From positions 11,524 to 75,523 of the forward strand of contig DASVRN010000100.1 in the NCBI GenBank assembly GCA_036388595.1: a stretch of 64,000 bases of DNA, read 5' to 3'. The notes beneath the pieces were generated by a model. The model did not search any database and was not told the DNA's origin. It was given only the letters and a program-made list of their open reading frames with translations. Positions 45,820-57,962 of the stretch are shown here, piece by piece. This DNA is from Chloroflexia bacterium (GTDB taxonomy: Bacteria; Chloroflexota; Chloroflexia; QHBQ01; JADMIH01). Made by a program: the position numbers and the translations under genes. Positions within the stretch are counted from its first letter, which is position 1, and every line of letters starts with the position of its first letter.

Positions 45820-48339
45820 CTATGACGTATTTTGACTGCTTAGCCTTATGGCGTCTTCAAGCCACTTTCCTGCAGTAGTTGTCTTTGGATGTTCAGGCCC
45901 TAGGTACTTGTGAAATGTTCTGTACGCACTTGTCAGGCATCCCTGTGCCTCTTGAAAATTGCCTCCTTCTAGTAGGGCTACACCCAAGTTGGCCAGCCAT
46001 GTAGCTGCTTCTGGGTGGTCTGGACCATATACTGCTTCGCCAATAGCAAATGCTCTCTCGAAGTTAGAACGTGCCCCTTGCAGGTCTCCAAGTTCTCGTA
46101 GTACGGTGCCTAACATGCTTAATCTCACTGCCACATTTGGATGATTAGGACCGTACACGGACTTATCAATGGCAAGTGCCCTCTCTAAGTTGGAGCGTGC
46201 CCCTTGCAGGTCTCCAAGTGCTCGTAGTATAGCGCCCAAGTTATTTAAGCCTACAGCTACATGAGGGTGATCAGGGCCATGCACAGACTTGATTATAGCA
46301 AGTGCTCTCTCGAAGTTGGAGCGTGCCCCTTGCAGGTCTCCAAGTTCTCGTAGTACGGTACCTAAGTTATTCAACCTTGCAGCCACAGTAGGATGGTCTG
46401 GACCATACATAGACTTACCTATAGCAAGGGCTCTCTCGTGGTTGGAGCGTGCCCCTTGTAAGTCTCCAAGTACTCGTAGTACCGTGCCTAAGTTATTCAA
46501 CCGTATAGCCACTGTAGGATGGTCTGGACCATACACTGCTTCGCCAATCACTATTGCTCTTTCAAGCTGGTCTCTTGCCTCCTTGTACTGTGCTCTATGC
46601 TCCAGATATAAGCCCACCTCGTTCAAAACATGCGATAGTAATTCACCAATTCCCTTAGTAGTAGGTATTTGTAAGTCAAAAAAGGAGATCACTGCTAACG
46701 CGTGCGGCAACACACTAGCTGCAATAGGCCATGTACCCATGCCGTCTATTCTATAGCTGAAGCCATCTCCCACTACACGTAAGGCTGCCTCTATCCACGT
46801 CTGCCTCGCATCAGGTGACAGTTTATCGCGTACTACAGCTTGTACCAGACGGTGGATTGATATACTGCGTCTATCTTTGTCTACCTCAACCAGCGAATAC
46901 TTGCCTAACTCTCCAACTACGTCATCCAACTTAAGAGGTTCCGATACTGCTTTCTTGAGGCTCTCCGGCAAGTGGTCAGCCCCTGCTACGATCATGTCTA
47001 ACGGAATGTCCTCAGGAGCGAAGAAAGCGCACAGATTCAGCAGGTCGGCTGCCGCCGGTGAGTGCCCGCGCACGGCTTGGAATGTTAGCTCCCAGGTAGC
47101 AGCTATGGTGGCTGGATAATCGTCCGAAGGGATGAATGCCTTATCTCTGTACTCCTGGAACAAGGGCAGATAGTCGGCTAGCGATTTCTGTTTCTGCTCC
47201 ATGTATGCACCTGCCTGTGCCAGGGCTATGGGCAGAAAACCCAACCCCTCCGCGAGTTTGCCTGCTGTGGCTCGGTCCTTCTCCCCCGTGCGTTTCAGCA
47301 GGAAATCAACGGCTTCCTCCGGCTCCAGCACTTCTACAACTACGGGTTGAGCGTATTGCCGCCAGTTCGGGTTGCGGGACGTAATGAGCACATGCCCGGT
47401 GCCGACTTGAGGCAGATACTTCGCTATTTGCTTGCCATCCTCCGCATTGTCAAACACAAGCAGCCACCTGGTGTTCTCCCTCAGCCAGCGTAAGACTGCC
47501 TTAACATCAGCATCCTGGTCCCTGGTGTCTAGCTGAGATATTCCCAGTTCGCCCGCTAAAGCTGCAAAATCGGCTGCGAGCGTGGTAGGTTCCTCAGCAC
47601 GCACCCACAACACAGCATCATATTCGCCTGCATAACGGTAGGCATATTCATTGGCAAGCTGTGTCTTGCCAACACCACCCAACCCGTGTAGGGCTTGAGG
47701 CTGCGTCAAGGCGGCGTGCTGGCCGGAGGTAAGTTTCTCAAGTAGGTCTTGAAGCAATTCCTCACGCCCGGTGAAATTGAGGTTGCGGGAGTGTGGCACC
47801 GTCCAAACCCTCGGGAGGGCGGGCCTCGGGGGTAGGGGCGGCGTAGTGCTGGAACGCGTCGCAGAACCACTTTGCCTGCTTCGCCTTAGTGCCTCCGCTA
47901 CTTTCGCTATTCCTTGTGCGACATTGGTAAAGGCTTCATCTATATCCGGCCAACTCCTGACAGGCTTCCCATCGGTTGGTAAGAAGTTTAGCTTTCCGAA
48001 TATCGCACCCTTCCAGTACACGGAACGTATGATGATGGGAATAACACTCGCTTTGCGGGCCTCGTGCCGTTCCATAGCTCGCTTCAACTCCACGCTGGAG
48101 CAGTAACGGGAGGCAAGGAAGTCAGAACTGATAAGAAGGAGTATTATATCTGCGCTATTAAGGTGCTCATCTATCTCGTGCTCCCACTCTGTGCCCGCGC
48201 TGATGTTGCGGTCGTGCCAATTACTGATCACACCGTTGGTTCTCAATATGCTAAGATGCTTTTCAAGTTTGTCGCGAAGGTCCTCATCCTCATGTGCATA
48301 TGAGTAGAACACCTCCAATGGCTTTTCTGCGTCAGACAT
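45820..48339 (-). CDS. TIR - NB-ARC (STAND P-loop NTPase) - TPR-repeat protein
   Basis: Start MSDAEKPLEVFYSYAHEDEDL (ATG 48339). TIR-like domain (...SADIILLLISSDFLASRYCSSVELKRAMERH...). Walker A GLGGVGKTQLANEYAYRY. NB-ARC-like region (LLVFDNAED...ITSRN). About 7 near-identical 42-aa TPR units (ERALAIGKSMYGPDHPTVAARLNNLGTVLRELGDLQGARSNF). Codon usage is visibly AT-richer than that of neighbouring genes. Confidence 0.85.
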   Translation of the reverse strand: MSDAEKPLEVFYSYAHEDEDLRDKLEKHLSILRTNGVISNWHDRNISAGTEWEHEIDEHLNSADIILLLISSDFLASRYCSSVELKRAMERHEARKASVIPIIIRSVYWKGAIFGKLNFLPTDGKPVRSWPDIDEAFTNVAQGIAKVAEALRRSRQSGSATRSSTTPPLPPRPALPRVWTVPHSRNLNFTGREELLQDLLEKLTSGQHAALTQPQALHGLGGVGKTQLANEYAYRYAGEYDAVLWVRAEEPTTLAADFAALAGELGISQLDTRDQDADVKAVLRWLRENTRWLLVFDNAEDGKQIAKYLPQVGTGHVLITSRNPNWRQYAQPVVVEVLEPEEAVDFLLKRTGEKDRATAGKLAEGLGFLPIALAQAGAYMEQKQKSLADYLPLFQEYRDKAFIPSDDYPATIAATWELTFQAVRGHSPAAADLLNLCAFFAPEDIPLDMIVAGADHLPESLKKAVSEPLKLDDVVGELGKYSLVEVDKDRRSISIHRLVQAVVRDKLSPDARQTWIEAALRVVGDGFSYRIDGMGTWPIAASVLPHALAVISFFDLQIPTTKGIGELLSHVLNEVGLYLEHRAQYKEARDQLERAIVIGEAVYGPDHPTVAIRLNNLGTVLRVLGDLQGARSNHERALAIGKSMYGPDHPTVAARLNNLGTVLRELGDLQGARSNFERALAIIKSVHGPDHPHVAVGLNNLGAILRALGDLQGARSNLERALAIDKSVYGPNHPNVAVRLSMLGTVLRELGDLQGARSNFERAFAIGEAVYGPDHPEAATWLANLGVALLEGGNFQEAQGCLTSAYRTFHKYLGPEHPKTTTAGKWLEDAIRLSSQNTS

Positions 48340-48540
48340 ACGTTGCTCCCCAAGGCGAGGTATGAGAACACAGTGGCTTGTGTATAGCCACATTATAGCT
48401 GTACTAATGTTTGTAGGGAAGTGATAGCGCGTGCTTACAGATCGGGCAATAGTTGTAGAGGAATGGACAGGGTCTAATCGCGAGCAAAGCCAACAAGCAT
48501 CCACCTTCTAGGATGCTCGTTGGCTTTGTTCAGACGATAC

Positions 48541-54191: not shown

Positions 54192-54347
54192 AGGGTGGGT
54201 TTTCTAGGTGTTTGTGGAGGTATGAGCAAGAGGTGGGCCGTGAGTTGCACAAGAATGGGCCACAAGTGGAGTGGGCAGCAACATGCAGGGTCCGACACTG
54301 GCAGTGCTATAATAGAACCATCAACGTGATCGAGGCAGGGATAACAC

Positions 54348-54578
54348 ATGAGCGCAGACTACCAGGATATCATCACCATCGAACCCGGCAAGCGCAGTGG
54401 GAAGCCCACGATTCGAGGCATGCGAATCACCGTATACGACGTACTCTCCTATCTGGCAGCCGGTATGACCCATGAGGAGATATTAGAGGACTTCCCTTAC
54501 CTGACTGAGCGGGATATATTGGCCTGCCTCAGTTACGCCGCTGACCGAGAGGCTCATGTGGTAGTCACGCATACGTGA
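54348..54578 (+). CDS. DUF433-family small protein (antitoxin-like)
   Basis: 76 aa, ...IEPGKRSGKPTIRGMRITVYDVLSYLAAGMTHEEILEDFPYLTERDI. Its stop overlaps the next gene's GTG (GTGA). Confidence 0.7.
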   Translation: MSADYQDIITIEPGKRSGKPTIRGMRITVYDVLSYLAAGMTHEEILEDFPYLTERDILACLSYAADREAHVVVTHT

Positions 54579-54907
54579 AATTGCTTTTCGACCACAACCT
54601 CTCACCGCGTCTCGTTCAGAAACTCTCCGACCTTTATCCTCAAAGTGAACACGTATACAACATTGGCTTAGATAGGGCTACGGACGATGAAGTTTGGCAT
54701 GTAGCTCAGGATAGTGGCTATGTAGTTGTAACGCGAGATGCCGACTTCAGTGACTTGAGTACGCTAAGAGGATTTCCACCCAAAATTATCTGGATACGTA
54801 TTGGCAACTGCCCTACTAGCCGAATAGAGGCAGCTTTACGTGCCCAGGAGGAGCAGATCAGCGCATTCGGCGACGACAGCGGCAGCGGTATACTTATGAT
54901 ACTTTAG
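54575..54907 (+). CDS. DUF5615-family (PIN-like) protein, putative toxin partner
   Basis: 110 aa, ...DHNLSPRLVQKL...DDEVWHVAQDSGYVVVTRDADF. Confidence 0.6.
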   Translation: MKLLFDHNLSPRLVQKLSDLYPQSEHVYNIGLDRATDDEVWHVAQDSGYVVVTRDADFSDLSTLRGFPPKIIWIRIGNCPTSRIEAALRAQEEQISAFGDDSGSGILMIL

Positions 54908-54999
54908 TTCCGGCTACAAGAATTCACCACGTCGTACAGCCACGTCAGCAACAGCAGTGGTGAAGTTTATCAGATTGACCTACTGGATTAGGATGTCGC

Positions 55000-55608
55000 A
55001 TGCAAGAGTCTGTTCAGGGTTACGAGCCTGTAATCATAACCAGGAAAACGGGCGACGAGCCTTTCCACTTGGACAACAGCCCGCTAGAACACAAATTGCT
55101 GGACTTCTGGAGGTGGGCGGCTTCCGATCTCGTAGGCAACACCGCAAGGGGCGTACTTGCTGAGTACATCGTGGCTATGGCTCTTGGGGTGGCAGAGGGA
55201 GTGCGCCTTAGCTGGGATGCCTTCGATCTAACAACTCCGTCAGGTGTGAAAATTGAAGTGAAGTCAGCCGCTTACCTGCAGGCCTGGTACCACAAGAAGC
55301 TATCTGCTGCCATCTTTACGATACGGCCAACCCGCGTCTGGAATCCCGACACAAACGAGTTAGATCCGGAAATTAAACGGCAGGCAGACCTTTATGTGTT
55401 CTGCGTGCTCAAGCATAAGGACAAGGCCTCTCTTGACCCACTCAATCTCAAGCAATGGGACTTTTACCTGTTGCCTGTTGGGGTACTGAATGCACGGATG
55501 CCAGTCCAGAAGACGCTTTCGCTGTCGAGCTTGCTTAGGCTTAGTCCTGTTCAAGCTACATACGAGACCTTGCGTGATGCTGTGCTAGCTATGGATTGCA
55601 GGCGATGA
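55000..55608 (+). CDS. hypothetical protein with PD-(D/E)xK-like motif
   Basis: 202 aa, WDAFDL...GVKIEVKS (D-x9-E-V-K) preceded by GVLAEYIVAMALG. Lower GC than flanks. Confidence 0.4.
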   Translation: MQESVQGYEPVIITRKTGDEPFHLDNSPLEHKLLDFWRWAASDLVGNTARGVLAEYIVAMALGVAEGVRLSWDAFDLTTPSGVKIEVKSAAYLQAWYHKKLSAAIFTIRPTRVWNPDTNELDPEIKRQADLYVFCVLKHKDKASLDPLNLKQWDFYLLPVGVLNARMPVQKTLSLSSLLRLSPVQATYETLRDAVLAMDCRR

Positions 55609-56027
55609 TAGCTAAACCCCGCACCGACGGCCTATACCGCACCGTCGAATCCAAGACGCTAGACACCGAGGGTGAGGAGGGCACGCCCTACTGGAACTAC
55701 CTGCGCTTCTACCCGGACGGCCACGTAATCAGCACCTCCACCACCGGCACGCCAGCGCAGATCGTCACGTGGTTCGCCCAGGAGGGTGTGAACGACACCT
55801 ACTTACCGATGGGTGACTACCGGGCTGATGGGCCTACCGTTAGCTTCACTACGCAAGCCAGGGCGGAGAACGTTGATAGAGACGGCTATGAGTACGAAAC
55901 AAGGGTGGACTACACGGTAACAATTCAGGACGAGAACGCTAATCTGCTACTGGTGACAACGCACAGTCACATCAACGGGCATGTGGGCACCGAGTTGTAC
56001 GAGTTCGTGAGCATGGAGGACAACTAG
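55596..56027 (+). CDS. hypothetical protein
   Basis: 143-aa ORF overlapping the previous gene by 13 nt. No family recognised. Confidence 0.4.
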   Translation: MQAMIAKPRTDGLYRTVESKTLDTEGEEGTPYWNYLRFYPDGHVISTSTTGTPAQIVTWFAQEGVNDTYLPMGDYRADGPTVSFTTQARAENVDRDGYEYETRVDYTVTIQDENANLLLVTTHSHINGHVGTELYEFVSMEDN

Positions 56028-56111
56028 AGGCACGACGGGCCTAGAATGCGAACAGCCCGGCTAGCTCAGATGGAGGGCGCAGCCGGGCTGTTTTCGCTTC
56101 AGCCAGTTAGA

Positions 56112-56639
56112 TTATGGCTTAGGGGCGTTGGGGTTCTTATTTTTGTTGCCCGGATGGTTGGGGTTGTTCTTGGGGCCGCCCGCCCAGGGTGGCTTACCGG
56201 GGCCACGTATCGTCTCGCCGTTGATGGTGTACACTTCCAGGCTGGGCACGGTCGATTGTGGCGGCTGGGCGGCTGGGTTGCCCTTGTTCTTGTTCTTGGC
56301 CTTCCCGAACGCCTTGCCCTTCTCGGCTTCGACCACGCCCGTCACCGTCACCTGCCGGCCCGCGTACTTATCGAGGGGGTACGCGCCATTGGCGTAATAC
56401 CAGGGCGGGCCGGCGGAGAGGCGATAAAGTGTCGCGCCGCTGCCGTTCTTGAGCAGGTAGCTCTTCTCGCCGCCTGCCGTTTCGACCACCAGCGTGCCGG
56501 TGGTGGTGATTACGTTTTCGGGGGCCTTGGGCGGCTTGGGTTTGTTGGGCTTGGCCTGGGCGCTCGAACCACTTACGAGCAGCGCCAGTACCACCAGGGT
56601 AGCACCAAACGCGGCCCAGAATCTGAATGTGCGTGACAT
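56112..56639 (-). CDS. small secreted Lys/Pro/Asn-rich protein
   Basis: Signal peptide ...LVSGSSAQA, then Lys/Pro-rich N- and C-terminal tails around a ~90-aa core. Confidence 0.5.
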   Translation of the reverse strand: MSRTFRFWAAFGATLVVLALLVSGSSAQAKPNKPKPPKAPENVITTTGTLVVETAGGEKSYLLKNGSGATLYRLSAGPPWYYANGAYPLDKYAGRQVTVTGVVEAEKGKAFGKAKNKNKGNPAAQPPQSTVPSLEVYTINGETIRGPGKPPWAGGPKNNPNHPGNKNKNPNAPKP

Positions 56640-56801: not shown

Positions 56802-57140
56802 CTAAGGCATGTCACTCGTTCTAGACTGTTTCTGCCCCCTATGGAGCCTATAGATGAGGTAAGCCGAGAAGAATAGAACCACGATGAACGCGACGAATAC
56901 GGCAAGCACCGTTAATAGAGTAGTTATGGGGATGTAAGCAGTGCCAAAAGGTTTTAGCTCGACAAAGTTGTCGCTGCTGATCGAGCCAGAGCCACCAATA
57001 TGGATGTGCCACCCTTCCACAATGGTAGATGGTCTAAACGAAGAGTAGATGGAAATCTCGAACGCAGTAAGGAGCAAGATGAAGAGGAGGAACGTAACAC
57101 CGATACCTAAACGCTTTGCAAGTGTAGGGGATTTGCTCAT
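56802..57140 (-). CDS. small 2-TM membrane protein in AT-rich islet
   Basis: 112-aa ORF. The surrounding 56640-57340 is about 48% GC versus ~63% in the flanks. Confidence 0.4.
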   Translation of the reverse strand: MSKSPTLAKRLGIGVTFLLFILLLTAFEISIYSSFRPSTIVEGWHIHIGGSGSISSDNFVELKPFGTAYIPITTLLTVLAVFVAFIVVLFFSAYLIYRLHRGQKQSRTSDMP

Positions 57141-57341: not shown

Positions 57342-57962
57342 TTATGCAGGCGGGTAGGGACAGTGTGCCCATATCAGCTTCATCGGCAGGAGCAGCCCGC
57401 GCCTGTTCTCCACCCGCTCGACCCGCAACCCTGCCTCACGAATAAGCTTCTCGGTATCCTGGTTCAATCTACATCCGCCCGCGAGCCTCGACCACACAGG
57501 GGCAAGCGCGTCCTGCATCTTCGCCTGCACGCGGTTCCCGGCCCTGACGTGTTCGAGGAAGCGGGCGGTAGCGCCGGGCTTTAGCACCCGCCTGACTTCG
57601 GCCAGCGCCGTGTGAGGGTCGGGGATGGTGCAGAGTGCCAGGTTACACACCAGTGCGTCGAAGGTGGCGTCGGGGAAGGGCAGGCGCATGGCATCGGCGG
57701 CCGCTACGACTACCCCGGCACGCGCCGATTTCGCCCTGCTGCTCAGGCGAGGCAGGCTGGCGGGGTCGAACTCGGTGGCGACCACCCGCGCGGCAGGCGA
57801 GTAATATCGCAGGCTCAGCCCGGTACCCGCCCCAATCTCCAGCACCAGGCCATCGAGCGGAGCTATTAGTTTACGCCTGCGCGGCCCAATGAAGAACATC
57901 TCCGGCGGCCCCTGTAGCGCCAGGTCGTAGAAGAATGGGTTGGTGGCTGGTGAAGTAGGCAT
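57342..57962 (-). CDS. class I SAM-dependent methyltransferase (Methyltransf_11-like)
   Basis: VLEIGAGTGLSLRYY and ...FDALVCNLAL.... Confidence 0.8.
   Translation of the reverse strand: MPTSPATNPFFYDLALQGPPEMFFIGPRRRKLIAPLDGLVLEIGAGTGLSLRYYSPAARVVATEFDPASLPRLSSRAKSARAGVVVAAADAMRLPFPDATFDALVCNLALCTIPDPHTALAEVRRVLKPGATARFLEHVRAGNRVQAKMQDALAPVWSRLAGGCRLNQDTEKLIREAGLRVERVENRRGLLLPMKLIWAHCPYPPA

Follow-up and report, generated by a model that had tools for sequence, protein, structure and literature searches.

Introduction

Small DUF433 (COG2442) proteins encoded beside PIN-domain proteins are predicted to form type II toxin-antitoxin systems, which are especially abundant in cyanobacteria and Chloroflexi (PMC2701414). 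A reverse search in the same work found no DUF433 partners other than PIN. COG4634 and PIN_10 have been assigned to the reduced, Mut7-C-like group of PIN domains, and both are regarded as potential toxins (PMC5499597). DUF433/PIN-like systems, of which Mycobacterium tuberculosis Rv2018-Rv2019 (VapB45/VapC45) is an example, go back to a prediction by Makarova et al. 2009 (PMC2701414), and their classification to Matelska et al. 2017 (PMC5499597). T4 endonuclease IV (DenB) is a deoxycytidine (dC)-specific single-strand DNA endonuclease (PMC1635256, PMC2095790, PMC2175332); it cleaves single-stranded DNA on the 5' side of dC and is lethal to Escherichia coli (PMC1635256). NhoI and Eco15I are 5-methylcytosine-dependent enzymes of the BisI family with a PD-QxK site (PMC11347163). 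Here we describe four short genes (A to D, Table 1) found between helY and a gene encoding a 175-aa protein (p175) in a 64,000-nucleotide stretch of a Chloroflexia bacterium (contig DASVRN010000100.1, positions 11,524 to 75,523), called the window below. Genes A and B are compared with the first of these systems and gene C with the other two.

The helY-p175 interval is probably a gene-turnover hot spot of this Chloroflexia lineage, with three functionally independent items which share an orientation and probably a transcript. These would be a toxin-antitoxin module (A and B), a stand-alone nuclease (C), and a native barrel protein (D). C would be one of the cellular members of the T4 endonuclease IV family, without a methyltransferase or conserved partner. 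An earlier note on this DNA had seen in the four genes a horizontally acquired mini-island and a possible toxin-antitoxin-plus-nuclease defence module. The first of these proposals holds in part, and the second does not.

Gene turnover between helY and p175

Synteny extends to the genes on either side of the interval (helY, p175, a UbiE-type methyltransferase, and a multicopper oxidase) in those related contigs that reach far enough to contain them. The block itself is not conserved in all relatives. The full set A-B-C-D occurs in the window and in L002, its closest relative. L003-L005 have the layout A-B'-C, in which codon 40 of B has become fused by a deletion to the ATG of C, and D is absent. 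Despite this truncation of B, C is intact in these loci and under purifying selection. In L001, L090, L091, and L087-L089 the layout is A-D, with the stop codon of A overlapping the start codon of D. B is absent from L001 and L087-L091. In L092, the contig of which begins inside B, the layout is B-D and there is no C.

A is present in every relative examined in which the contig reaches upstream of D (this region is not visible in L092). In L087-L089, which are three independent contigs from different samples, A carries a nonsense codon (CGA to TGA) at position 16, while D is intact. The DUF433 gene in these loci (L087 1638-1868) is an antitoxin pseudogene left after toxin loss.

All four genes are under purifying selection (ratio of nonsynonymous to synonymous substitution rates, dN/dS, 0.03-0.36), and their synonymous divergence (dS) is uneven. 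Between the window and L002 dS is 0.079 in A and 0.074 in B, rises to 0.376 in C, and is 0.19 in D and 0.15 in p175. Between the window and L001 A is saturated, and helY and D have values of 0.38 and 0.32. The segments therefore have different histories, implying recombination or allele replacement.

The low GC content of the block, remarked on in the earlier note, is real (0.531 against a window mean of 0.603; 1.6% of 1,680-bp windows are as low), but it does not extend to every gene. The GC content at third codon positions (GC3) is 0.65 in A, 0.49 in B, and 0.59 in C, whereas that of D (0.76-0.77) is like that of the flanking native genes (0.77-0.84). Neither is low GC unique to the block, because two other patches of the window (45.0-48.9 kb and 49.5-51.4 kb) are equally GC-poor. 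D is thus constant and compositionally native, and A, B, and C are variable and atypical. From the atypical composition of A, B, and C together with their variation among close relatives it follows that recent gain and loss is real. The idea of an acquired island stands to this extent for A-C; D is native, syntenic, and outside the islet.

No tRNA, Rfam match, or flanking direct repeats that could be signatures of insertion were detected, and no integrase or transposase is evident among the open reading frames of the block. Extra genes were found between helY and the DUF433 gene in L001 (6814-7497, a 227-aa ion-channel-like membrane protein; Ion_trans_2, E 3e-5) and in L003 (1434-2018, 194 aa, no family). 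They support the view of the interval as a hot spot.

Gene C encodes a nuclease-like protein, probably of the T4 endonuclease IV family

The earlier note had taken a D...E-V-K arrangement in the 202-aa protein as a sign of a PD-(D/E)xK nuclease, and the comparison with homologues agrees with it. In an alignment of 44 diverse homologues E55, W72, D76, V87, and Q94 are among the invariant residues and E86 and K88 among the near-invariant ones. E55 lies in a helix (47-62) and E86-V87-K88 in a strand (84-91), with 90-100% conservation. The AlphaFold (AF2) model of C (predicted local distance difference test, pLDDT, 90; predicted template modelling score, pTM, 0.85) has a nuclease fold. In a Foldseek search of the model against the PDB the top matches were NhoI/Eco15I (E 5e-5 to 5e-4), PvuII, SfiI, and EcoRV, all of them PD-(D/E)xK restriction enzymes. 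On motif and model C belongs to the PD-(D/E)xK superfamily; the fold and motif are supported by both and catalysis is predicted. The gene is under purifying selection (dN/dS 0.09-0.10).

Searches with C against Pfam (a set without PF26887), NCBIfam, PADLOC, and PHROGs returned nothing significant, PHROG 1360 included. Neither the C sequence nor the C-family profile (the latter at E up to 10) matched any PDB sequence. The family assignment comes from close homologues. More than 1,800 proteins are related to C, and all 120 of those listed carry a precomputed match to PF26887 (Phage_T4_End_IV). So do homologues with 83-99% identity to C, and the accession is shared by T4 DenB and related phage proteins. 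C and DenB are also of similar size (202 and 185 aa), and their catalytic cores can be aligned (AEY...WDAFD...IEVKS in C, AEF...WDV...VEVKT in DenB). Unlike in the core, the N- and C-terminal parts of C do not align with DenB, including the region of T4 Ser176. C also differs from DenB in being cellular, chromosomal, and vertically maintained under purifying selection. A Foldseek search of C against the BFVD viral structures gave weak matches only (generic PD-(D/E)xK or unnamed proteins), none of them T4 DenB.

The best structural matches to C are the modification-dependent BisI-family enzymes NhoI and Eco15I (PDB 8q5n, 8rpx, 8q5m; PMC11347163) and PvuII, with template modelling (TM) scores of about 0.4-0.5. 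As in the BisI family, C is a small PD-(D/E)xK protein with no separate sensor domain and no cognate methyltransferase. Membership in that family was rejected: the site of C is ExK, while that of the BisI family is PD-QxK (WD...QVK), no likeness at the sequence level was found at E up to 10, and the resemblance in fold comes with modest TM scores. C was also considered as an END nuclease (bioRxiv 10.1101/2025.03.31.646159) and rejected, as it lacks the defining iEndoIII domain.

Distribution and neighbours of gene C

A scan of species-representative genomes gave at least 592 stretches matching C at about 50% identity, in many bacterial phyla and some archaea. The family is also present in at least 108 IMG/VR viral contigs. 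A tblastn search of C against 50,697 phage records found only Faecalibacterium phage FP_Brigit and one uncultured phage. Most of the phage-borne members (L093-L172 from IMG/VR; FP_Brigit 1877-2485) are in contigs of apparent gut-metagenome origin, and the gene is often located within about 0.6-2 kb of the end of a contig or genome. This suggests a conserved position near one genome terminus.

The neighbourhoods of C homologues were compared in 160 other loci, 80 from diverse genomes and 80 viral. All-against-all clustering of the neighbours in the 80 genome loci revealed no conserved partner; the largest clusters represented local synteny in related Armatimonadota or common regulators. In a Pfam scan of 150 immediate neighbours no family was seen at more than three of the loci. 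These results make C an essentially solitary gene: DUF433 is absent nearby in 77 of the 80 genomes and there is no recurrent neighbour family. No DNA methyltransferase was found among the 25 most frequent neighbour families. A Methyltransf_11/UbiE-type gene does lie near C in the window (57342-57962), and it is also present in relatives without C. With no methyltransferase among the 25 most frequent families beside its homologues, C was rejected as the nuclease of a type II restriction-modification system.

C is most likely a single-gene nuclease which would cut foreign DNA. The host could be spared by the class of the substrate, namely single-stranded DNA and/or DNA with a specific cytosine state, as with DenB or the BisI-family enzymes. 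A role as a methyltransferase-less defence nuclease is plausible on the comparisons above. As a side effect, the toxin-antitoxin pair may help to retain the nuclease gene next to it.

Do the four genes form a functional unit?

A number of observations weigh against three independent items and against a DenB-like C. DUF433 genes occur within 1.3 kb of C in 3 of the 80 genomes (and in none of the 80 viral loci), which seems above a rough chance estimate. The order DUF433-DUF5615-C recurs in an Acidobacteriota metagenome-assembled genome (L060, JANLTF010000147.1, 4349-5585), with a 20-nt gap before C. The ATGA shared by C and D would allow translational coupling. The assignment of C to PF26887 runs through its homologues and not through its own score against the PF26887 model. 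An hhalign comparison of the C and DenB families gave a probability of 63% (E 6.9e-5) over about 48 columns, in the catalytic core only, and the single-sequence BLASTP match between C and T4 DenB reached only E 0.048. T4 DenB kills E. coli (PMC1635256), yet its cellular homologue has no partner gene. Biochemical or genetic data on cellular PF26887 members were not found in the literature.

The recurrence of the gene order would also fit A-B-C being a facultative three-gene unit, with D unrelated. A-B would then either control C, which might for example be kept repressed until the cell is infected, or act as an addiction module which stabilises the nuclease gene. L060 belongs to a different phylum and has the same order with short gaps, L050 has DUF433 followed by a different PIN-like gene and then C, and in Armatimonadota loci C has toxin-antitoxin genes of other kinds (RHH/PIN) beside it. 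The number of DUF5615 genes near C is a lower bound: a jackhmmer search of the loci with B brought up no other DUF5615 gene, and it missed even the L060 copy that Pfam detects. We nevertheless consider such a unit unlikely. DUF433 is lacking beside C in nearly all genomes and in every viral locus, and L003-L005 keep an intact C next to a B of 40 codons. The dS values of A and B between the window and L002 differ from that of C. The A and B proteins of L060 are only 46% and 28% identical to those of the window, and its A-B-C set is therefore not a unit co-transferred with that of the window. As DUF433/PIN pairs are very abundant in Chloroflexi (PMC2701414), chance adjacency to C is also easier. 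A facultative association of toxin-antitoxin genes with C is possible, though not as the rule. As a side observation, the L060 genes lie in a GC-poor patch beside a helix-turn-helix (HTH) gene.

That A-B-C-D is one horizontally acquired defence cassette, the genes of which act together, is very improbable and already largely refuted by the presence/absence patterns. In its favour are the shared orientation, the overlapping or abutting gene ends, a single candidate promoter and a single terminator, the low GC of the block, and the retention of the full set in L002. Against it, the parts separate in relatives as A-D, B-D, and A-B'-C, D is compositionally native, dS is discordant within the block, and C is solitary in nearly all of the 160 other loci. 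None of the four proteins matched the PADLOC-DB 2.0 defence models at E up to 1.

The overlap of C and D, their adjacency in the window and L002, and the lethality of T4 DenB in E. coli would suit a toxin/immunity pair, with D a translationally coupled inhibitor of a toxic DenB-like nuclease. This was rejected as highly improbable on the presence/absence patterns: D is missing beside C in L003-L005 and in each of the 160 other loci, and C is missing beside D in L001 and L087-L092; in addition, the superfamily of D consists mostly of lipoproteins and barrel domains, and GC3 is native in D and not in C. An unrecognised toxin-antitoxin-like pair of DUF433 and D, with B and C as later insertions, would fit the stop/start overlap of A-D loci and the fusion of D-like domains to TIR in remote relatives, and it was rejected as equally improbable, since A is a pseudogene beside an intact D in L087-L089, the B-before-D layout of L092 points to loss of B rather than to an original A-D pair, and no DUF433 partner except PIN was found in the published search.

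Genes A and B resemble a known kind of toxin-antitoxin module

The pairing of DUF433 and DUF5615 proteins, recognised in the earlier note as a predicted toxin-antitoxin combination, is confirmed by profile searches and by the literature cited above. A matches Pfam DUF433 (PF04255), a DNA-binding domain of three helices, over the whole model (E 3e-26, 1-56 of 56). It also matches a solved DUF433 protein (PDB 2GA1, E 2e-5) and, weakly and above the usual cut-off, the structure of Rv2018 (PDB 5AF3, E 0.064). B matches DUF5615 (PF18480; E 4e-36, 1-103 of 110), and its match to PIN_10 (PF18478) barely exceeds the cut-off (E 5e-6; 26.9 bits against 26.2). Unlike PIN_10 proper, B belongs to the DUF5615/COG4634 branch. 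The acidic residues D6, D37/D38, and D54/D56 of B stand at the expected places.

The two genes are small, adjacent, co-oriented, and tightly coupled with the antitoxin first, as in toxin-antitoxin loci, and their GTGA overlap is also found in L002 and L060. The arrangement is that of Rv2018-Rv2019, with a small DUF433 gene first and a 4-nt overlap onto a minimal PIN-like gene of about 110 aa. A lacks the extra winged-helix domain of Rv2018. The dN/dS of A is 0.03-0.08 and that of B against L002 is 0.16. That relatives have repeatedly lost or truncated B and kept A is compatible with a toxin role and proves nothing.

A and B thus appear to be a type II toxin-antitoxin module of the known COG2442/minimal-PIN kind, with toxicity and neutralisation predicted from the families. 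B would be a Mg-dependent nuclease toxin neutralised through binding by A, which would also repress its own promoter.

Gene D is native and encodes a predicted barrel protein

The open reading frame of D was listed from a TTG at 55596, which gave the 143 aa of the earlier note. All eight close homologues (140-145 aa) align from the Met at 55605, and for this reason D most likely starts at that ATG and has 140 aa. These eight are the only close homologues and all come from the same lineage. D is syntenic between helY and p175/methyltransferase in L001, L002, and L087-L092, and its GC3 is 0.74-0.81 in all lineages.

In the AF2 model (pLDDT 85) D folds into a beta-barrel of about 10 strands, to which one helix is added. 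The best Foldseek matches are lipocalin-like (4gzv, BACOVA_00364, and 4iab) and weak (E 1e-3, TM 0.46, 10-13% identity). With eight or more antiparallel strands and one helix the model resembles bacterial lipocalin/calycin barrels, at the level of fold only. D had been described as having no recognisable family, and no curated model (Pfam, NCBIfam, PADLOC, PHROGs) scored above threshold. An exhaustive profile search did, however, recover 520 remote relatives. Many of these have lipoprotein-type leaders, whereas D has no signal or leader peptide, and 27 of 42 members have sub-threshold FBO_C matches.

On GC3 and synteny D is a native gene outside the islet, with a predicted lipocalin-like barrel as its product, and it probably just lies downstream and is read through. 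In remote relatives a D-like barrel was found at the C-terminus of TIR-domain proteins (P0167, P0181, P0204) and of a WD40 protein (P0288). This hints at the D-like domain being a sensor or ligand-binding module in conflict systems.

Layout of the block and neighbouring genes

All four open reading frames are on the + strand, and the co-orientation and overlapping ends given in the earlier note are confirmed. The A stop overlaps the B start by 4 nt (GTGA, 54575-54578), and the C stop overlaps the D start (ATGA, 55605-55608) given the ATG start of D.

Table 1. Genes and candidate expression signals of the block, in window coordinates.
Feature	Coordinates	Strand	Description
Gene A	54348..54578	+	76 aa, DUF433 (COG2442), predicted DNA-binding antitoxin
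Gene B	54575..54907	+	110 aa, GTG start, DUF5615 (COG4634, Mut7-C-like minimal PIN), predicted toxin nuclease
Gene C	55000..55608	+	202 aa, solitary PD-(D/E)xK endonuclease (predicted), probable T4 endonuclease IV (DenB) family PF26887, predicted catalytic E55/D76/E86/K88
Gene D	55605..56027	+	140 aa, lineage-restricted, predicted cytoplasmic beta-barrel (lipocalin/calycin-like)
Candidate extended -10 element, TGcTATAAT	54305..54313	+	34 nt upstream of the ATG of A, read from the sequence
Purine-rich GAGG/AGGG	54332-54340	+	upstream of gene A
Terminator-like hairpin after D	56051..56096	+	perfect 12-nt inverted repeat, 18-nt loop, then TTTTC; convergent with the p175 gene

The candidate -10 element, which may belong to the promoter of A, was not listed by a consensus promoter scan, because it has no good -35. 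A similar element, TGcTATACT, lies upstream of the DUF433 remnant in L087. Another promoter-like match was found inside the 3' end of B (54873-54900); such matches are no more numerous than in shuffled sequence. The hairpin was partly listed by a terminator scan and, by alignment, is kept in L001. One transcript spanning all four genes is plausible from these signals.

Variable genes were also observed near the block. A bacterial NLR (nucleotide-binding leucine-rich repeat)-like protein of 894 aa with TIR, NB-ARC/STAND, and TPR regions is encoded at 45820-48504 (-), in another GC-poor block, flanked by tpiA and a DUF5122 propeller gene. In L001 the DUF5122 gene directly follows tpiA, with no TIR/NB-ARC gene between them. 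The TIR/NB-ARC gene thus has the appearance of a second defence-like insertion that varies between strains, about 6 kb from the four genes. Just downstream of the block, a predicted membrane protein of 112 aa (56802-57140, -) has a GC content of 0.475 and a GC3 of 0.575. Among the relatives examined only L002 has a counterpart, and L001 has a 667-aa gene in this interval instead. The N-terminus of the p175 protein itself (56112-56639, -) is hydrophobic, and its C-terminal tail is rich in Lys, Asn, and Pro and contains repeats (KNKNKGNP...NKNKNPNAPKP). The underlying DNA contains 26-nt degenerate direct repeats (56127-56302), and the tail varies in length, giving proteins of 175 to 190 aa across relatives.

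Discussion

The toxin-antitoxin pair is routine and the locus as a whole offers little that is new. The useful result is a negative one: adjacency, shared orientation, and stop/start overlaps do not mark a functional cassette here, and close relatives show this clearly.

C deserves attention. It belongs to a large and highly conserved family (about 50% identical across phyla) which is patchy, partner-less, common to cells and gut phages, and not in PADLOC. Its only characterised relative is T4 endonuclease IV, the dC-specific single-strand DNA nuclease lethal to E. coli. Tentatively, and with less confidence than in the hot spot itself, the cellular PF26887 branch may be a widespread single-gene anti-phage nuclease which needs no methyltransferase and would tell self from foreign by the strandedness of the DNA and/or the state of its cytosines, a counterpart of T4 DenB on the host side. 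DUF433/DUF5615-like modules would then be recruited occasionally as stabilisers or regulators. The substrate of the cellular C-type enzymes and the reason why their hosts tolerate them, once learned, could extend the list of simple functions in immunity or DNA processing that a single gene provides.

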